Part shown: positions 19,822-33,030 of the stretch, one piece after another
How the letters are laid out: each line of letters begins with the position of its first letter
Numbering within the stretch: the stretch's first letter is position 1
Assembly (NCBI RefSeq): GCF_044324875.1
Contig: NZ_CP172185.1
Source: Escherichia coli
GTDB lineage: Bacteria > Pseudomonadota > Gammaproteobacteria > Enterobacterales > Enterobacteriaceae
Length of the DNA stretch: 64,000 bases
Strand: one strand, 5' to 3'
Notes under the pieces: generated by a model
The model's input: the letters and a program-made list of their open reading frames with translations, nothing else
Told to the model about the DNA's origin: nothing
Database searches by the model: none
Made by a program: the position numbers and the translations under genes

Positions 19822-21369
19822 TTATGCCGCGTTCAGGGCGTTGTGGTTGATAGCCATCATCGTCATCAGCCGTTCTTCGTTAGCGTCGTCACCGTGGATC
19901 TCGCCAGTTAACCGGCCTTCACTAAGGGTGATGATCCGGTCAGACACCGCCATCACTTCAGGCAGATCGGAGGAGATCACGATCACCGCCACGCCCTTTT
20001 TCGCCATATCAAACAGCACCTGGTGCACTTCCGATTTGGTTCCAACGTCGATGCCACGCGTCGGCTCATCGACAATCAACACCCGTGGATTGAGCGCCAT
20101 GCAGCGCGCGAGGATAACTTTCTGCTGGTTGCCGCCAGAGAGCTTACGCACCTCTTGCGTGCTGTTGACCATTTTGATCTGCAGCGCCTGGCGGTAGGAC
20201 TCAATCAGGTCGTCCTCTTTGCGGGTATTCACAAACCAGCGCCACTGCAACAGCGAGGAGAGGCAGGAGAGCGACAGGTTGTAGCGAATCGACAGACCCA
20301 GCACCGCCCCCTCTTTTTTGCGATCTTCCGGCACCAGCGCCAGCCCTTGCTCCAGCGCATAAAGTGGGTCACGCGGCTGGTACGGCACGCCGTCCAGTTC
20401 AAAGCTGCCGGTGGTAAAGGCGTCGGCGCCAAACAGGCAGCGCGCTACCTCAGTACGACCAGCCCCCACCAGCCCAGCGATACCCAGAACTTCCCCAGCA
20501 TGGACGTGAAAACTGATGTCATGCAGGGCGATGCCGTGTGGATCCAGCGGCGGTTTTTCCCGGCTTAACCCCTTCACCGACAAACGGACAGGTTTGTCTT
20601 CATGGTGGGTTTCGCTGGCAGGGCGGCGGTTAAAGGCCACATCACGCCCTACCATCAGGCGGATCAACTGCTCTACGTTCGTCTCCGTCACTGCGCCGGT
20701 GCCGGTGAAACGGCCATCCTGGAAAACGGTGAAACGATCGCAAAGCTGGAAAACTTCATGCAGACGGTGAGTAACGTAAATAATGCTCACGCCGCGGTTT
20801 TTAAGCTCCCGCACCACGCGGTGCAGGCTTTCCACCTCGCTGTCACTCAGGGCGGCGGAGGGTTCATCCATGATGATCAGCCTGGCATTGAGGGTCAGCG
20901 CCCGGGCAATCTCCACCATCTGCTGCTGGGCCACGCTCAGACGGGCGACTGGCGTGGTGGGTGCGACATTCAGTTGCAGATAATCGAGAATCACCTGCGC
21001 TTCCTGATTGACCGCTTTTTCGTCGACGATCAGGTTACGTTTACGCGGTTCGCGTCCGAGAAACATGTTTTCCGCAACGGTCATATTGGGCAGCAGGTTG
21101 AATTCCTGATAGATGGTGATAATGCCCTTGTTCTGCCGTTCTACCGGGGAGTCGTCCACCGGCAGCGTTTCGCCATTGAACCAGATCTCCCCGCGCGTTT
21201 GTGGCTGTGCGCCCGCGAGTGCCTTCAACAGCGTGGATTTCCCAGCGCCGTTTTCGCCCAGCAAAGCGTGAATTTCACCCGTGCCGACGGTGAGCTGGGC
21301 GCTGCTCAGCGCCCATACGCCGGAAAAGCTTTTTGCCAGGTCGGTTACTTTCAGTAAGGGTTGCGACAT
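19822..21369 (-). CDS. sugar ABC transporter ATP-binding protein, duplicated NBD
   Basis: 515 aa, two nucleotide-binding domains (GENGAGKST Walker A; second degenerate), RbsA-like. Confidence 0.85.
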   Translation of the reverse strand: MSQPLLKVTDLAKSFSGVWALSSAQLTVGTGEIHALLGENGAGKSTLLKALAGAQPQTRGEIWFNGETLPVDDSPVERQNKGIITIYQEFNLLPNMTVAENMFLGREPRKRNLIVDEKAVNQEAQVILDYLQLNVAPTTPVARLSVAQQQMVEIARALTLNARLIIMDEPSAALSDSEVESLHRVVRELKNRGVSIIYVTHRLHEVFQLCDRFTVFQDGRFTGTGAVTETNVEQLIRLMVGRDVAFNRRPASETHHEDKPVRLSVKGLSREKPPLDPHGIALHDISFHVHAGEVLGIAGLVGAGRTEVARCLFGADAFTTGSFELDGVPYQPRDPLYALEQGLALVPEDRKKEGAVLGLSIRYNLSLSCLSSLLQWRWFVNTRKEDDLIESYRQALQIKMVNSTQEVRKLSGGNQQKVILARCMALNPRVLIVDEPTRGIDVGTKSEVHQVLFDMAKKGVAVIVISSDLPEVMAVSDRIITLSEGRLTGEIHGDDANEERLMTMMAINHNALNAA

Positions 21370-21420
21370 CAGCCTGCTCCTTATTTATGGGGAGCCGCCC
21401 GTACGGCGGCTCCAGACAAA

Positions 21421-22350
21421 TCAGTTACCGGCCTCAGCAATACGCTCAGCCTGTTGCAGGTTCTCTTTGGTGATCAGCGTCGGCGGATAGTCCGCCCCGG
21501 TGATAGTTTTTTTCTCACGCACGTTAGCCACCAGTTGGCTCATCGCCGTGGTCACCGCAAAGCCGGGACGCTGATCCGCCGTAACCGCCAGCCAGCCGTC
21601 GCGCACGCGGGCCAGTGCTTCCGGTACCGCATCAAAACCGGTGACCAGGATTTCACCCGGTTTCACACCCTGACTCTGCAGCGCTTCAATCGCCCCCAGC
21701 GCCATATCATCGTTGGCAGAGAGGATCACCTGAGGACGTTTTGGCAGCGACGGCAAAACGCTTTCGACAATGCGCATCCCTTCCGAGCGCATCCAGTTGC
21801 CGGTCTGATCGGCGACGATCTTGTACATATCCCCGCCAGCCTTCAGGCTGTCACGGATCCCTTTGGTGCGTTCAATGTTGGAGGAGGAACCCGGTTGACC
21901 GGTCAACAGAATGATCTCCGCGCCGTTGGGGAATTTGGTTTTGACGAAGTCGCCAATCGCCTGGCCGCCCTTGTAGTTGTTGGCACCAAAGTGCGGCACT
22001 TTTTTCTGGCTGTCGACAGAGCGGTCAAGCGTAACGACCGGCAGCTTCGTATCCTGAATTTCATCTACCGCACTGGAGACCGCGTTCACATCGTTCGGGG
22101 AGACGATAAAGCCCTGCGCACCACGGGTGATGGCGTTTTCCAGGTCAGCCACCTGCTTCGGTGAGCTGCCCTGACCGTCCAGTACCTGAAGTTTCACCCC
22201 CATCTCTTTTGCGGCTTTCACCGCCGTGCGCTGCATGTGAACTTCAAACGGCATGGCCAGGTTTGGCGTACTGAAAACAATTTGCTCGTTTTCGGCTATG
22301 GCGGCCCCGGATGTCATGGCGATTAGGGCGGCTAAGATCAGTTTTTTCAT
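21421..22350 (-). CDS. periplasmic sugar-binding protein of ABC transporter
   Basis: Track ORF 21421..22398; start at MKKLILAALIAMTSGAAIA (signal peptide) preferred; RbsB-like fold. Confidence 0.8.
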   Translation of the reverse strand: MKKLILAALIAMTSGAAIAENEQIVFSTPNLAMPFEVHMQRTAVKAAKEMGVKLQVLDGQGSSPKQVADLENAITRGAQGFIVSPNDVNAVSSAVDEIQDTKLPVVTLDRSVDSQKKVPHFGANNYKGGQAIGDFVKTKFPNGAEIILLTGQPGSSSNIERTKGIRDSLKAGGDMYKIVADQTGNWMRSEGMRIVESVLPSLPKRPQVILSANDDMALGAIEALQSQGVKPGEILVTGFDAVPEALARVRDGWLAVTADQRPGFAVTTAMSQLVANVREKKTITGADYPPTLITKENLQQAERIAEAGN

Positions 22351-22381
22351 TATTATGTCTCTCTGTGTAGGGTTGTTGTGT

Positions 22382-23368
22382 TTAGAGGACGATCTCACGC
22401 TGGCAACGCAGTGATTCCAGCGCTTTATCCGCTAGGTACAGCGCACGTTCACCATCATCGCCGCTGCAATCAGGCACCGCTTCGCCGCGCAGAACCGCAA
22501 CAAAGTGCTCCCATTCCGCTGCGTAAGCGGATTTGTAGCGTTGCAGGAAGAAGTGTTCCGGCAGCGCGCTGGTGCAACCCTGTTTGCCGTAGTGCTGCAC
22601 CTGGTTTTCAAGGATATTGCCCGCGCACAGCAGCCCTTCGGAACCGTGTAGCTCCAGGCGCTGGTCGTAGCCGTATGAAGAGCGGCGACTGTTGACGATG
22701 GTCGCCATCGCGCCGGAGGCATATTTCAGAACGATAAATGCGGTGTCGATATCTCCCGCTCCGCCAATCGCCGGCTCCACCAGATTGCTGCCCTGTGCAT
22801 ACACCGACACCGGCTCTTCACCCATGATGAAGCGTGCCATGTCAAAGTCGTGGATGGTCATATCACGGAACATGCCGCCGGAAACACGCACGTACTCCGC
22901 AGGCGGTGGAGACGGATCGCGGGAGATGATCAGCAGTGATTCCGGTTTGCCGATACGCCCGGCCTGAGTGTCGGTTTTCACGCGACGGAACTGTGGGTCA
23001 AAGCGGCGGTTAAAACCGATAAACAGCGGTACGTCATACTCTTTGACCACTTTCAGGCAGTCGCGTACGCGGGCAAGATCAAGGTGTACCGGTTTTTCAC
23101 AGAAAATGGCTTTGCCGTAACGGGCGGCCATTTCAATCAGATCCGCGTGGGTGTCGGTCGCGGAGGCGATCAATACGGCATGAACGTTCGGATCGGTCAT
23201 CGCCTCATCCAGGCTCTGCTGGCGCGCCTGATACTGTGTCGCGAGACGCGTGGCGAACTCCTGATTCGGGTCTACCACAGACCAGAGCGTGGTCGCACTA
23301 TGGCTGGCGATGTTAGCTGCATGTACCTGGCCAATTCGGCCAGCGCCCAGTAAAGCAATGTTAAACAT
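22382..23368 (-). CDS. iolG: myo-inositol 2-dehydrogenase IolG
   Basis: 328 aa Gfo/Idh/MocA protein, GAGRIGQVHA dinucleotide motif and CEKP. Confidence 0.8.
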   Translation of the reverse strand: MFNIALLGAGRIGQVHAANIASHSATTLWSVVDPNQEFATRLATQYQARQQSLDEAMTDPNVHAVLIASATDTHADLIEMAARYGKAIFCEKPVHLDLARVRDCLKVVKEYDVPLFIGFNRRFDPQFRRVKTDTQAGRIGKPESLLIISRDPSPPPAEYVRVSGGMFRDMTIHDFDMARFIMGEEPVSVYAQGSNLVEPAIGGAGDIDTAFIVLKYASGAMATIVNSRRSSYGYDQRLELHGSEGLLCAGNILENQVQHYGKQGCTSALPEHFFLQRYKSAYAAEWEHFVAVLRGEAVPDCSGDDGERALYLADKALESLRCQREIVL

Positions 23369-23570
23369 AACGGCTCCCGGTGTTGATGAATGCGGTGAAC
23401 TAACGACACTACAAATAAAACATTTATTTCATTTTTATAAATAGTGAAAATTATATTTTGAGTGCCAGTTAACACTTTTGAGATGTATTAGATAAATTTT
23501 GTTATCAATCTCACAACGCCGAGGAAGATATGTCCCTCCATTACAAGGGGGGGAGGGAATAAAAACTGTA

Positions 23571-23601
23571 CCATCCCCTCTCCCGTTGGGAGAGGGGATG
23601 G
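23571..23601 (-). terminator. perfect 14-bp-arm palindrome, likely terminator after iolD
   Basis: CCATCCCCTCTCCC-GTT-GGGAGAGGGGATGG followed on minus strand by TTTTTATT; second GC hairpin (TCCCTCC...GGAGGGA) at 23533-23558. Confidence 0.5.
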
Positions 23602-23652
23602 GTGAGGGGAAAAAAGAAAAATGAAATGAAAATTTCGTTACGACAGGAAAAC

Positions 23653-25578
23653 TCAATACTGACGAGCTTTTTTCACCTGAGCCTGTGTTTGCTCGGCGGC
23701 CTGGCGCACTGCTGGCGACTCTGCCACCTGTGCGTTGCCGGTTCGCCACCATGACGCGTAATCATGGGTCATGGTTTTTGGTAGCACTTTGATGTCGAGG
23801 AGCGTCGGTCCCGGGTGAGCGCGCGAGGCTTCCAGCGCCGCCAGCAGGCTTTTCTCATTATGTACCCGCCATGCGCGGCAACCGTAGCTTTCCGCGTTTT
23901 GCGCAAAATCGACCTTCACCAACGGCCCGTCAAGCTGACCTGTTTTCGGATTACGGTAACGATTTTCTGTGCCAAAACTCCCCATTCCGTGCCCCATCTG
24001 CAGGTTATTAATGCAGCCGAAGCTGGCGTTATCAAACAGCAGAATGGTGACCTTAATTCCCTCCTGTACGGCAGTTTGCAGCTCTGAGTGCAGCATCATG
24101 TACGAACCATCGCCTACCATGGCATACACCGGCTGCTGAGGTTTTGCCAGCTTCGCACCAATAGCCGCTGCGACCTCATACCCCATGCAGGAGTAACCAT
24201 ACTCCAGATGGTAACTGTCAGGCGTTTTAACCTGCCAGAGGCGTTGCAAATCCCCTGGCAGCGATCCGGCCGCCCCCACCACAATGGCGTTATCCTCAAT
24301 ATGCTGGTTAATGAGCCCCAACACCCGCGTCTGGGTCAGGTGTGTGTTGAGCGTTTCACCGTATTCCATTAGCTGTGCATCAAGGTGCCCTGCCACTTCG
24401 GGAACGTCGTCAGGATGCCACTGGCGTTCCCACAGTCGACAGCATTCATCGTGCCAAGCGGATTTCGCATGGGCAATCGCCTCCCCCCAGCCACTACGAT
24501 AATCTTTCAGTGCGTGGGTCAACGCTGTCAGACCAGTTCGGGCATCGGCAATGAGCGCGGTGGCATCCAGCTTCAGGGAGTCAAACTCAGCCACGTTCAG
24601 CAGCAGGAACTCGACGTCGGGATGAGAAAAGAGCGCCTTAGAGCCGGTAGTAAAATCCGTCAGGCGCGTGCCGATGCCAATCACTAAGTCAGCCTGCGGC
24701 GCAAGCTGGTTGGCAGCCATTCCGCCCGTCACGCCCACCCCGCCCAGATTAAGCGGGTGGTCACTTACCAGCGCCCCCTTACCGGCCTGGGTTTCGGCAA
24801 ACGGCAATTGCAGCACTTCAACAAATTCCCGTAACGCCTCATGCGCACCGGAGTAACGCACGCCACCGCCGCACACCACCAGTGGACGGCGCTTGCGGGA
24901 AATCAATGCATGAGCCTGCGCCAGTCGCTGCGGGTCAGGCGGACGGCGTTCAATATGATGCACCCGACGCGCAAAGAAACTCAGGGGGTAATCCCAGGCC
25001 TCCCCCTGCACATCCTGAGGTAGGCAAATGGTCACCGCTCCTGTATTTGCGGGGTCAGTAAGCGTTCGCATCGCACTTAACATCGCGCTCATAAGCTGTT
25101 CAGGACGGTTGATGCGGTCCCAGTAGCGGGAAACCGGGCGGAAGCAATCGTTGGTACTGATGCTGAGATCGTGATACTGCTCGATCTGCTGCAACACGGG
25201 GTCAGGCTGGCGGCAGGCGTAGATATCCCCTGGCAGTAGCAGCAGTGGAATGCGGTTCGCCGTGGCCGTCGCTGCCGCCGTCACCATATTGGCAGCGCCA
25301 GGCCCAACGGATGAGGTGACAGCAAAAATACGCTGACGGCGATGCTGTTTGGCGAATCCCGTCGCCATATGGGCAATCCCCTGCTCGTTACAGCCTTGCA
25401 TCACCTGCAGATGACCAGGATCCTGCTCCAGCGCCTGGCCGATACCGAGCACGTTACCGTGCCCAAAGATCGTTGCCACGCCCTCCACAAAGGGCGTTTC
25501 TTTACCATCAACGCTAACATATTGTTGGTTAAGAAATCTGACCAGCGCCTGGGCCATAGTCATACGTTCGGTTTGCAT
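23653..25578 (-). CDS. iolD: 3D-(3,5/4)-trihydroxycyclohexane-1,2-dione hydrolase IolD
   Basis: 641 aa thiamine-diphosphate enzyme (GDGS TPP motif); start may be a few codons internal. Confidence 0.85.
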
Positions 25579-25589
25579 AAAACCCCCTG

Positions 25590-27095
25590 TCAGCCCAGCG
25601 TCGGCATGGAGAACGCTGCACCTGTCTCCTGCTGCATTTCCGGCCAGCGTGCAGTGATGGTTTTCATTCGGGTGTAGAAACGCACGCCATCGTTCCCGTG
25701 AACATTGAGCGCGCCAAAAATGGAACGTTTCCAGCCACCGAAACAGTGGAATGCCATTGGCACCGGGATCGGCACGTTGACCCCCACCATACCCGCCTGC
25801 ACCTCTTCACAAAAGCGGCGTGCGCAGCCACCGTCACGGGTGAAAATGGCCGAGCCATTACCATATTCGTGTCGGTTAATCAGATCCACCGCGCTGGCGT
25901 AATCTGCTACGCGCACCACAGAAAGCACCGGTCCGAAAATTTCTTCTTTATAGATGGTCATCTCCGGGGTGACGTTATCGAACAGAGTCGGCCCAACGAA
26001 ATAGCCCTGCTCGTGCCCTTTCACTCTGAGGCCACGCCCGTCCACACGCAGGTTAGCCCCCTGAGCTTCGCCACTGTCGATATAGCCCAACACTTTGCTG
26101 CGGTGTGCGGCGGAGATCAGCGGCCCCATCTCGTTTTCTGGCGTCTGGTTCAGGCCAGGTCCGACGCGCAACGAAGCGATCTTTTTTTCCAGCCGGGCGC
26201 AGAGTTCATCAGCCGTTTTATCGCCAACCGCCACCACCACGGAAAGCGCCATGCAGCGTTCTCCTGCCGCACCATAAGCTGCGCCCATTATGGCGTTTGT
26301 CGCCATATCCATATCGGCATCCGGCATTAAAATGCAGTGGTTTTTCGCACCGCCGAGCGCCTGACAGCGCTTACCGTGGGCGGACGCAGTCAGGTACATG
26401 TATTCGGCAATCGGTGTTGAACCGACAAAACTGACGGCCTGCACGCGCGGGTCGGTCAGGAGCACATCAACGGATTCTTTATCGCCCTGCACCACGTTGA
26501 ATACGCCGTCCGGCAGGCCTGCCTCTTTCAGCAGTTTCGCCAGCGCGAGCGCCAGAGACGGATCTTTTTCCGACGGTTTCAGCACGAAGGTGTTGCCTGT
26601 CGCCAGAGCTATCGGGAACATCCACATTGGCACCATCGCCGGGAAGTTAAACGGCGTGATCCCGGCGCAGACCCCGAGCGGCTGCATCAGTGAGTGGCTG
26701 TCGACACCTGTGCCAACGTTCGCAGAGTGTTCGCCTTTTTGCAGATGTGGGATGCCGCAGGCGAATTCTACCACTTCCAGACCACGGGTCAGTTCACCTA
26801 CTGCATCTGAGAAGACCTTACCGTGTTCTTCACTGATAATACGGGCCAGACGCTCCATATTCTCTTCAAGCAACGCTTTGAAGCGGAACATCACACGCGC
26901 GCGCTTGAGTGGAGCAAAACGTGCCCACGCGGGAAACGCCAACTGTGCTGCGGCAATCGCCTGTTCGGTTTCCTGTGCCGTACTCATCACCACCTGGCGA
27001 ATCTGCTCGCCAGTGGCCGGGTTGAAGATCGCCTGAATGCGCTGGCCTGAACCGGTGACACATTCGCCGTGAATAAAATTCGCTACCGTCTCCAT
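25590..27095 (-). CDS. iolA: malonate/methylmalonate-semialdehyde dehydrogenase IolA
   Basis: 501 aa aldehyde dehydrogenase with catalytic Cys region GERCMA and EEIFGPV. Confidence 0.85.
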
Positions 27096-27385
27096 CCTTA
27101 ACCTCTCGCTGTTGATACGTGATTGTTACCTGAACGTTATGTACTGAACACTATATATGAAACAAATATTCCATTTTAAGTTGAAATAAAATAAATAATG
27201 ATTATTGTGATCAAGGATGGATTTTTATGTGAACAGCCAGCATCACTGACTCAGCCTGAGCTATTAGGAGTTTCGGGCGAGGAAATGACTGAAGCTTCTG
27301 TTTCATTTTTGCTGCCAAGTGGATGGCCAACATTTAAAAGACGCGGTTTTGCGTTTAGAATCATGAGACTGGATAGGGGGATAAC

Positions 27386-28246
27386 ATGACGACAGCAACC
27401 AGCCTGAACGAACTACAAAAGCAAATCCGCGATCGCTACGATAGCCTGAGCAAAAGGCTGCAGCAGGTCTCCCGCTATGTACTGGATAATACGAACAGTG
27501 TCGCGTTTGATACGGTTGCGGTCATAGCCGAACGTGCCGATGTTCCACCCTCTACACTGATTCGTTTTGCCAATGCCTTTGACTTCACCGGCTTCAACGA
27601 AATGAAACAGTTATTTCGTATGCACCTGGTGGAGGAAACCGCCAGCTACAGCGATCGTGCGCGACTGTTCCGCGAAATGGAGAGCGAAGCCGTACCTGAA
27701 ACGCCGCTCGATATTTTGCAGGAGTTCGCCAGTTCGAACTCGCAGGCGCTGCAGCAGTTGGCTGCCCGCGCCGAACCGGAGATGCTGGAGCACGCCGTAC
27801 AACTACTGGCCTACGCCGACACCATTTACATCGCCGGATTACGCAGATCCTTTAGCATTGCTGCTTATCTTACCTATGCTTTAAGCCACCTAGAGTGCCG
27901 CCCTATTCTGCTTGACGGGATGGGCGGCATGCTGCGCGAACAGATCAGCCGTATTAAGGCGTGCGACATTGTGGTGTCGATCAGTTTCTCGCCGTACGCG
28001 GAAGAAACGGCGATGGTCAGCAAAACCGCCGCCAGCGTCGGCGCTCGGCAGATTGTGATTACGGATAGCCAGATCAGCCCACTGGCAACGTTCAGTGATC
28101 TCTGCTTTGTGGTGAAAGAGGCTCAGGTGGACGCATTTCGGTCTCAGTCGGCAACATTGTGTCTGGTGCAGTCGTTAGTGGTCGCGCTAGCTTACCGTTT
28201 AGGAGATAAAAAACATAATAATACCCAGGAAAACAGTAACCAATAA
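27386..28246 (+). CDS. iolR: RpiR-family transcriptional repressor IolR
   Basis: 286 aa, N-terminal HTH plus C-terminal SIS domain, divergent from iolA. Confidence 0.8.
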   Translation: MTTATSLNELQKQIRDRYDSLSKRLQQVSRYVLDNTNSVAFDTVAVIAERADVPPSTLIRFANAFDFTGFNEMKQLFRMHLVEETASYSDRARLFREMESEAVPETPLDILQEFASSNSQALQQLAARAEPEMLEHAVQLLAYADTIYIAGLRRSFSIAAYLTYALSHLECRPILLDGMGGMLREQISRIKACDIVVSISFSPYAEETAMVSKTAASVGARQIVITDSQISPLATFSDLCFVVKEAQVDAFRSQSATLCLVQSLVVALAYRLGDKKHNNTQENSNQ

Positions 28247-29020: not shown

Positions 29021-29791
29021 TTAATAAGGCCTGATACTGACATGATTTTTGTCGTATTTACGTCCGTGAGCGGCTATTGCCCACACCGTTCGCGCCAGCT
29101 TGTTTGCCATTGCGACGATTGCCACGCTGGCCGGACGACGTTTTTTCAGTTCGGTTATCCACGGCCCAGGTTCTTTGGTCAGTAATGCTGCCGCCCTTGC
29201 ACCATGAATAAACAGGGTTCGCAGATATTTATCACCACGTTTGCTTATTCCCAGCAGGCGGATTTTTCCTCCTGAGCCTGTCTGTCTGGGCACCAGACCA
29301 ACATAAGCCGCGAACTCTCGCCCTGATTTAAACACTGATGCTTTCCCCATGATGGCCAACGCTGCCGTTGCAATAAGTGGCCCAACGCCAGGAATATCCA
29401 GCAACCGTCTACAGGTTTCATTCTGTCTCGCCACACTGGTAAGCTGTTTTTCTATATCATCTATCAGTGAGTCCAGTTCATTCAGCCTGTAGTACTGATT
29501 TTCCAGCACTGTAATGAGATACAGTGGCAGTCTCTCTTTCATCCGCTCCAGTGCTTCAGGGAACTCCCGTTCCATCGCTGCCCGACCTTTGTGGATGGTT
29601 TCACCAAACTCCAGTAACGTCCCGTGCAGGGCATTAATTTGCGCGGTCCGGAACTTCACCAGTTGTCTGCGGGAACGGTGCAGAACCAGTATTGACTGTT
29701 GTTCTTCTGTTTTGACGGCGATTTCTTTGCCTGGCTGCTGTACCGCCATCCAGATAGCTCGCGCATCCATCACGTCATTCTTATTGCCCAT
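29021..29791 (-). pseudogene. IS110-family transposase, N-terminally truncated by IS629
   Basis: 256-aa ORF matches the C-terminal two-thirds of IS110/IS1111-type transposases; N-terminal domain missing, IS629 end at 29817. Confidence 0.65.
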
Positions 29792-29857
29792 GACGAATGC
29801 TTTAACGAAGCGAGCTGAACCGCCCCGGGTTTCCTGGAGAGTGTTTTATCTGTGAAC

Positions 29858-32237
<2,380 letters not shown>

Positions 32238-32242
32238 GCAAA

Positions 32243-32707
32243 CACATCAATGATGAACGCCACATAGACGACCCCCTCCCATGTGCTGACGTAAGTAAAA
32301 TCAGCCACCCACAACTGGTCAGGACGTTCTGCCACAAACTGACGGTTTACGCGGTCGCCTGCGGCAACGGCTTTCCGGCTGACGGTAGTGCGGACCTTTT
32401 TACCCCGGAGAACACCGGCAAGTCCCATAACCGCCATGAGGCGCGCCACTGTACATCTGGCTACCCTGATTCCTTCCCGTAACAACTGACGCCAGACTTT
32501 ACGCACACCGTATACCTGATGATTCCCATCGTATACGCGCAGTATCTCTTTCTTCAGCCAGTCATCGCGCTGCGCACGGGCACTGCGTTTATAAGGATGA
32601 TGTCGCTGTTGCTGACAGTGGTAATACGTTGACGGGGCAATATGTAGTTCACTGCATACCGGTCCGACCCCGTACAGCTTACGCAGCTTATCCAGCAGTG
32701 GCATCAC
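32243..32707 (-). pseudogene. IS629 orfB, N-terminal part
   Basis: Identical to OrfB residues 1-154 of copy 2, then runs into the IS100 end. Confidence 0.8.
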
Positions 32708-33030
32708 TTTTTCCAGAGGCGGTCGAACTCCGCCTTCGCAAAATAAGCGGAAGCCTGGCGAAGGATATCGTTACTGCGGCGCAGTTCACGATTTTCACGT
32801 TCCAGCTCTTTCAGACGCTGACGTTCAGCGGTGGTGAGCCCGCCATCACCGCCTCCGGTATCCCGCTCATGCTGGCGTACCCAGACACGCAGAGTCTCCG
32901 GTGTACAGCCAATCTTTGGGGCAATGGAACAAATTGCCGCCCACTGTGAGTCATATTCGCCCTGACTTTCCAGAACCATACGAATCGCCCTCTGACGGAC
33001 TTCGGGGGAAAAACGAGTATTTTTAGTCAT
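32704..33030 (-). CDS. IS629 OrfA
   Basis: 108 aa, identical to copy 2 OrfA (38056..38382). Confidence 0.85.

Follow-up and report, generated by a model that had tools for sequence, protein, structure and literature searches.

BoxC repeats and similar intergenic elements

BoxC repeats, short G/C-rich intergenic sequences dispersed in E. coli, Enterobacter, and numerous other bacteria, belong to a family that is said to have been known since 1992 and characterised between 2000 and 2016, Bergler 1992 and Hoyne et al. 2000 reportedly being the earlier references. The motif was first named BoxC, was re-described as PIT by Hoyne and Maher, and then became TMECO, according to Holder et al. 2015 (PMC4666352). 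Its published pattern is 5'-CCCTCNCCC N3-6 GGGNGAGGG N3 GGGNGAGGG-3' (PMC4666352). That paper (PMC4666352) credits K-12 with 23 copies, all intergenic and without orientation bias relative to genes, and counts 3610 copies across 262 proteobacterial genomes, among them up to 143 in Enterobacter asburiae, 20 in E. coli ATCC 8739, and none in Salmonella; for E. coli in general, it gives a range of 1–29. It distinguishes two types by the second loop, TTA in type A and CCG in type B, and describes inverted A+B pairs as frequent. It reports formation of the TMECO triplex in vitro without a footprint in vivo, raised variability of TMECO loci, and a 'palindrome effect'. As regards transcription, it cites Hoyne & Maher 2002 for the lack of promoter and terminator activity of PIT elements, and states that RNA polymerase is unaffected by them. 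Kaplan et al. 2016 described the same sequences as G-quadruplex-hairpin-duplex switches, HPG1/HPG2, and their table includes the K-12 copies at frlR/yhfS (HPG1 no. 38), fabI, and ilvC/ppiC (PMC5100583).

REP/BIME elements resemble the BoxC family in being short dispersed extragenic palindromes, which frequently lie in 3' untranslated regions or separate transcription units. A stabilising effect on the mRNA upstream is also possible, the stable 3' hairpins of REP elements protecting the transcript that precedes them.

The iolD–iolG spacer of an accessory island

The window, that is, the whole stretch of DNA analysed here (64,000 nucleotides of Escherichia coli, RefSeq assembly GCF_044324875.1, contig NZ_CP172185.1), contains an iol gene cluster for the utilisation of inositol. 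The genes iolA (25590–27095), iolD (23653–25578), and iolG (22382–23368) lie on the minus strand, and iolR, which encodes an RpiR-type regulator (27386–28246), is divergent from the iol genes. Past iolG follow an ABC transporter, a Gfo/Idh/MocA oxidoreductase, iolC, iolE, and iolB. Within the 64-kb window, the 284-bp spacer between iolD and iolG houses both inverted repeats discussed here, which are thus intergenic, as BoxC copies always are.

The iol region is regarded as an accessory island because only 44 of 5426 complete genomes of E. coli, that of ATCC 8739 being one, have the spacer, the GC content is raised, and insertion sequences of the IS110, IS21, and IS3 families border the region. 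In strain C11 the spacer is 100% identical to that of the window. The GC content of the iol segment (16001–28000) is 0.56–0.59, compared with 0.46–0.52 in the flanking 4-kb bins, a contrast that fits a recent gain from an Enterobacter- or Citrobacter-like donor.

Geometry and folding of the two hairpins

The larger hairpin (hairpin 1) consists of two 14-nt arms at 23571–23584 and 23588–23601, 100% complementary and separated by a 3-nt loop. The smaller one (hairpin 2), found by the inverted-repeat search, has 7-nt arms at 23533–23539 and 23552–23558 and a 12-nt loop. Both are considered here as parts of the minus-strand transcript of the iol genes. Between them, at 23558–23570, lies a spacer that is homologous to GATAGTTCGGTGCGGTTTTCCCT of Enterobacter and carries a T-run on the coding strand, where the sequence past hairpin 1 reads TACAGTTTTTATT. 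The preliminary description had placed two hairpins in the iolD–iolG spacer, had called the 14-bp-arm palindrome perfect, and had noted a T-run after it on the coding strand. All three observations hold: the arms lie where they had been located, 14 of 14 pairs close the GTT loop in an arrangement absent from 100 shuffles, and TACAG-TTTTT-ATT follows at 23570–23558.

The 31-nt palindrome at 23571–23601 is absent from 100 shuffles, and neither it nor its 10-mer core has a second site within the 64 kb. As RNA, hairpin 1 folds at −27.6 kcal/mol (z = −6.0), a value equalled by 0 of 200 shuffles. The fold of hairpin 2 (−11.1 kcal/mol, z = −1.8) by itself is within chance, because 10 of 200 shuffles fold equally well.

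Identification of the pair as BoxC repeats

The element is identifiable as BoxC by virtue of a third block, GGGTGAGGG at 23600–23608, a direct near-repeat of the right arm of hairpin 1 that runs past the end assigned to the feature in the preliminary description; the right arm GGGAGAGGGGA as a whole is directly repeated as GGGTGAGGGGA at 23599–23610. The published pattern is matched exactly at 23576–23608 on the plus strand, once in the 64-kb window and never in 100 shuffles. The intact motif, at 23576–23609, reads CCCTCTCCC-GTT-GGGAGAGGG-GAT-GGGTGAGGG-G on the plus, G-rich strand. All nine of its nine triads with the hairpin would be permitted in the purine motif (G*G:C, A*A:T, T*A:T), judged by sequence, and the four G-runs at 23588–23609 make up the only G4 motif on the plus strand of the window. 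Because the iol genes are transcribed from the G-rich strand as template, their mRNA carries the C-rich version together with the hairpin.

By its sequence, the motif at 23576–23608 is a member of the BoxC/PIT/TMECO (= HPG1/HPG2) family. It shares with the family the three-block pattern, the intergenic site, and a triad-compatible hairpin followed by a third G-block, and the inverted A+B pair (seen at the orthologous locus of Enterobacter), the variability between strains and genera, and the 'palindrome effect' are likewise family traits. It differs in its GAT second loop, its 14-bp stem, its decayed partner, and its location in an accessory island instead of the core genome. The published types have TTA or CCG as the second loop, whereas the E. 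coli copies have GAT and plasmid p14EC033c has GTA. We take GAT as the mark of a variant, which does not exclude membership since the published pattern admits any N3. The comparison with HPG1/HPG2 leads to the same family: four G-runs are preceded by a complementary C-rich block, and copies occur as opposite-strand pairs less than 50 bp apart, the difference being that the second G4 loop of the window copy is AT (GGGG-AT-GGG).

The family name was obtained by a full-text literature search with the sequence blocks. In the RefSeq record of K-12, the frlR/yhfS copy has no annotated repeat features, and thus annotation supplied no name; the exact sequence of the iol copy was not found in the accessible part of the text of Holder et al. 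2015 (PMC4666352). We conclude that the two hairpins are very probably an inverted pair of BoxC ("triplex-motif") repeats, the second of which has decayed. What sets the window copy apart within the known family is solely the GAT second loop, the lengthened stem, and the decayed partner.

Distribution of related copies

BLAST detects related copies in 4946 of 5426 E. coli genomes, the median genome having 4 such copies and none more than 11 places, and the K-12 frlR/yhfS intergenic copy is among the relatives so detected. A BLAST search with the p14EC033c element as the query found related copies on 328 plasmids in varied intergenic contexts, for example, after ilvC in Klebsiella and before lsrK in Enterobacter. 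All copies have a common asymmetric architecture, CCCTCACCC-NNN-CCCTCTCCC-loop-GGGAGAGGG. The copy-number search of the palindrome that the preliminary description had proposed as a check thus turned up related copies, rather than identical ones, in many genomes and plasmids.

A scan of 100,044 species genomes with the left half CCCTCACCCNNNCCCTCTCCC indicates the breadth of the family and not the counts in Enterobacterales. Among the matches listed, metagenome-assembled genomes (MAGs) of Archangium, Afipia, Contendobacter, and an unclassified bacterium have dozens of copies each, and every match listed contains the same hairpin. In the unclassified bacterium represented by MAG JANYBJ01 (L016–L043), the BoxC-like core is embedded in a dispersed, near-identical repeat of ~90 nt (…TAACGCGGGCGGAGCCCGCAA-CCCTCACCCCGACCCTCTCCCAGAGGGCGAGGGAGGGGGCAACAACGTTCTTTTTATCAC…), which suggests a MITE-like carrier.

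History of the locus across genera

Orthologous iolD–iolG spacers were gathered by means of IolG homologues. In nine of the ten loci with an E. cloacae-type IolG (L151, L152, L154–L160), and likewise in the E. asburiae locus L139, an intact inverted A+B pair occupies the same position. Element 1 of this Enterobacter pair, CCCCTCACCC-TAA-CCCTCTCCC-ACT-GGGAGAGGG, is of type A on the C strand, and element 2, which follows after a spacer of ~23 nt, is CCCTCTCCC-TGAG-GGAGAGGG-CCG-GGGTGAGGGG, of type B on the G strand; the second loops are accordingly TTA (TAA on the C strand) and CCG. Plasmid p14EC033c has an iol operon of 91% similarity, and its IolG is the Enterobacter cloacae protein. There and in locus L153, the pair is found in a collapsed form, a perfect palindrome with 22–23-bp arms (TCCCCTCACCCTACCCCTCTCCC-ACT-GGGAGAGGGGTAGGGTGAGGGGA in p14EC033c), which is an instance of the 'palindrome effect' of PMC4666352. 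Both E. asburiae L139 (GCA_900447185.1) and locus L002 have their iol genes called as many short fragments, with iolD split in both and, in L139, iolG fused to a binding protein; these fragmented calls could be due to pseudogenisation or to assembly errors at homopolymer runs.

In the E. coli island, element 1 has been kept, with the second loop changed from TAA to ATC. The stem was lengthened from 9–10 bp to 14 bp because the ATC loop complements the 3' flank GATGG (GATAG in Enterobacter), and the outer five pairs of hairpin 1, CCATC/GATGG, are made of these loop-2 and flank bases. Downstream, TACAGTTTTTATT aligns with the inter-element spacer of Enterobacter, and hairpin 2 aligns with CCCTC(G/T)CCC..GGGAGA(G/A)GG of the type B partner, leaving a 22-nt gap opposite Enterobacter CCGGGGTGAGGGG. 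As far as this alignment can tell, hairpin 2 is the decayed hairpin part of a type B motif that has lost its third block.

Citrobacter portucalensis, whose IolG is 96% identical, has a decayed copy, CTTCATCCATCGCCTCCTTCC-TGAAC-GGAAGGGGG, that retains the ATC of the E. coli type, and its spacer contains no second element. In the same species (locus L135, 2157–2260), REP/BIME copies (GCCGGATG...TTATCCGGCCTACA) lie between the iolD stop codon and an operator-like box, and this spot has gathered two repeat families, REP/BIME beside decayed BoxC. Unrelated hairpins or tandem repeats occupy the spot in Pluralibacter, Edwardsiella, Buttiauxella, Yersinia, and Dickeya. In Yersinia pseudotuberculosis (L142, 2140–2260), tandem repeats of ~20 nt (GCAGAAGATAGGGTTGGCA) take the place of the variable segment, and in Aeromonas hydrophila (L140/L141, 705–2500), the segment is a 1.8-kb insert with either an additional ORF or part of an IS.

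When pairs are counted in ten distinct sequences, the inner nine of the hairpin hold almost everywhere, whereas the outer five are confined to the alleles of E. coli and the collapsed variant of Enterobacter, which differs by double changes at two neighbouring pairs (AU to UA and UA to AU). Of the E. coli alleles, ATCC 8739, MS85-1, GXU, and NCTC10444 are substituted in the third block, and further allelic changes affect the C-run of hairpin 2. None of the E. coli alleles examined varies in the right arm of hairpin 1, and the one change in the left arm, C to T, retains a G-U pair. The invariant arm and the G-U-preserving change would also fit selection on an RNA hairpin, that is, a local function; the allele sample is small, and selection and recent common descent are not separable by it.

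The control region of iolG

The context of the repeat pair is set by a region outside it. At 23369–23532 lies a conserved control region of iolG (minus strand) with a CRP-like site, a promoter region, a candidate operator, and a ribosome-binding site. It is near-invariant in E. coli, Enterobacter, Citrobacter, Pluralibacter, Edwardsiella, Buttiauxella, Yersinia, and Dickeya. The CRP-like site at 23500–23515, present as GTTGTGAGATTGATAACA within the stretch conserved across these eight genera, lies upstream of iolG and reads TGTTATCAATCTCACA, with one mismatch to TGTGA-N6-TCACA; also conserved in the eight are the region TGTTAAC...CTCAAAAxATAATTTTCAC and AAAATGAAATAAATGTTTTAT. A search of the window for the CRP pattern gave 2 matches against 2.3 expected, which is not significant, and because this count is within chance, it is solely the conservation across genera that speaks for the site. 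CRP binding is documented for the iol promoters of Salmonella (PMC10783015).

With up to two mismatches allowed, a palindromic 18-mer, ATGAAA-N6-TTTCAT, matches the window 12 times, compared with 4.0 expected, and none of 100 shuffles reaches 12. The best sites are 23415–23432, 23621–23638, 27157–27174 (in the iolA promoter), and 27602–27619, and another lies at 27289–27306. The site at 23621–23638 (ATGAAATGAAAATTTCGT) is located, together with a T/C tract, at the start of the iolD 3' untranslated region (23610–23652, minus strand), and the operator-like box is conserved in six of the eight genera. We infer that these sites may be IolR operators; PMC5349611, which was searched for an IolR binding motif, gives none.

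The two 18-mers of the spacer (23415–23432 and 23621–23638) flank the repeat pair. The repeats thus lie in the only non-conserved stretch, between the candidate operators, and therefore the hairpins are not the conserved part of the spacer; because the pair falls within a variable stretch, it is not a required part of iol regulation. Eight genera share the flanking blocks of the spacer, which argues that iolG has a control region of its own and supports the idea of the preliminary description that this spot divides two transcription units. Its suggestion of a REP-like element separating two iol units was right insofar as a dispersed intergenic repeat does lie upstream of the conserved iolG control region; the sequence is not that of a classical REP.

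Alternative readings of the hairpins

According to the preliminary description, the hairpins probably terminate the iolA–iolD transcript, a claim that our results do not support. That hairpin 1 and the T-run form a Rho-independent terminator ending this transcript appears doubtful to us. As in intrinsic terminators, a G/C-rich stem-loop lies past the stop codon and has a U-run in its vicinity: the 14-bp stem is highly stable (−27.6 kcal/mol), TTTTTATT is found downstream on the coding strand, the site is listed by a lenient scanner, and a transcript end would be sensible at a place where the following gene has its own conserved control region. However, UACAG (5 nt) intervenes between the stem and UUUUU, so that the U-run starts 6 nt past the stem. 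The tail score nT is 1.4 compared with 4.7 for a control, the trp terminator, and the d score, a rough value obtained with a formula reportedly due to d'Aubenton-Carafa et al. 1990, is −5.4 compared with +30 for the same control. The hits of the lenient scanner in the region are at the level of chance (7 versus 6.5 expected from shuffles). The combination of stem and U-tract is unconserved as well: the Enterobacter orthologues have only GGUUUU at 15 nt from the stem, the collapsed form has no U-run, and the other genera have unrelated hairpins. Besides, PIT elements are cited as being without terminator activity (Hoyne & Maher 2002, via PMC4666352). Partial termination or pausing at hairpin 1 is conceivable all the same. 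A transcript end of another sort would be provided if the RNA past the iolD stop codon, being rich in C and poor in G, were a loading site for Rho and the hairpin acted, like a REP, as a pause site and a protector of the 3' end. The first 67 nt past the stop codon, which include the C-rich strand of the motif, contain 23 C and 4 G, and a 78-nt window from 23666 contains 25 C and 7 G; C-rich windows past iolD are found also in Enterobacter, Citrobacter, Edwardsiella, Buttiauxella, and Dickeya, and the REP elements supply a precedent for protection. Because such RNA is common to most of the other genera, Rho termination combined with 3'-end protection by the hairpin is a reasonable alternative, albeit an unlikely one: the evidence is purely compositional, Pluralibacter and Yersinia have no such C-rich window, and in K-12, BoxC copies are not biased in their orientation with respect to genes (PMC4666352).

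A role of the DNA itself is very unlikely. The G-rich template strand would have to form a triplex or G-quadruplex that serves as a roadblock or switch for read-through between the iol units, and it does carry both the G-rich motif and the sole plus-strand G4 motif of the window, with family members reported to adopt a triplex (PMC4666352) or a G4/hairpin switch (PMC5100583) in vitro. We do not favour this reading because the in vivo literature is negative, with no triplex footprint and RNA polymerase unaffected by PIT elements (PMC4666352), and because the third block has decayed in alleles (substituted in ATCC 8739, MS85-1, GXU, and NCTC10444) and in Citrobacter, where the whole motif has decayed; other genera with the same operon lack the motif altogether. 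Being palindromic, extragenic, and repeated, the element could be mistaken for a classical REP/BIME element mobilised by a REP-associated tyrosine transposase (RAYT), an origin that we regard as extremely improbable. It has no sequence relationship to the E. coli REPs that lie beside the K-12 family member or to those in the Citrobacter spacer, neither the window copy nor the family consensus has a GTAG/CGTC head or REP consensus, and the E. coli copy number is only tens per genome, far below the hundreds expected of REPs; BoxC has a third block in addition, and we know of no RAYT partner for it. The probability of a riboswitch, an attenuator, or a small ORF (23435–23752, minus strand, 105 aa) is practically negligible. 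The RNA is structured and the ORF, a mechanical call, spans the segment; however, in other genera the segment is replaced by unrelated sequence, and the ORF begins within iolD, out of frame with it. Rfam searches of the whole window at the gathering threshold and of the spacer at E ≤ 10 gave no relevant match, the best (E = 0.07) being to a eukaryotic/archaeal snoRNA model, and neither conserved alternative pairings nor a conserved peptide was seen in the orthologues. The small ORF and the riboswitch were rejected on the ground that the segment is unconserved between genera, and the same finding, together with the Rfam result, leaves without support the preliminary suggestion of an attenuator separating the iol units.

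Proposed course of events and its meaning

The reading of the hairpins as an inverted BoxC pair can be put together as follows. Each BoxC element consists of three 9-nt blocks, CCCTCNCCC, GGGNGAGGG, and GGGNGAGGG, of which the first two pair as a hairpin and the third, in vitro, can occupy the groove of the hairpin as a purine-motif triplex or contribute its G-runs to a quadruplex. The pair probably reached E. coli as part of the iol island, which was acquired horizontally. Element 1 has stayed intact, its stem growing to 14 perfect pairs as the bases of loop 2 came to complement the 3' flank, presumably by hairpin-templated (quasi-palindrome) mutation or by selection, and element 2 has decayed to the weak 7-bp hairpin. 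Read-through from iolA–iolD would then yield RNA with a very stable hairpin, and by analogy with REP elements, the consequences may amount to at most weak termination or pausing and protection of the 3' end from exonucleases.

The hairpin has been lengthened twice at this locus, by ATC/GAT in E. coli and into the palindrome with 22–23-bp arms in the Enterobacter lineage. It is a long shot that BoxC in the C-rich orientation constitutes a portable 3'-end module, in which a G-poor Rho-loading tract is combined with an exonuclease-blocking hairpin and the stem lengthening reflects selection and not templated mutation. If true, this would be the first physiological role of the long-orphan BoxC/TMECO family.

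With the hairpins identified as BoxC repeats, they should not be annotated as an iol-specific terminator or attenuator, which on its own carries little weight. The locus also offers a natural series, comprising an intact pair, a collapsed palindrome, one intact lengthened element with one decayed, a fully decayed form, and absence. The flanks are conserved throughout this series, which is usable to probe the effects of BoxC on read-through, mRNA stability, and local instability.

Insertion sequences beside the iol region

The IS-rich flank of the island extends over 29021–32707 and 38337–39269 and contains an IS110-family transposase, IS21 IstA/IstB, and IS3. There are two IS3-family copies in opposite orientation, each with a full-score ALIL frameshift pseudoknot, located at 32633–32749 on the minus strand in copy 1 and at 38337–38453 on the plus strand in copy 2. 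A vWA-TerF-like gene (37144–37716) lies between them, and the arrangement may be a composite element.
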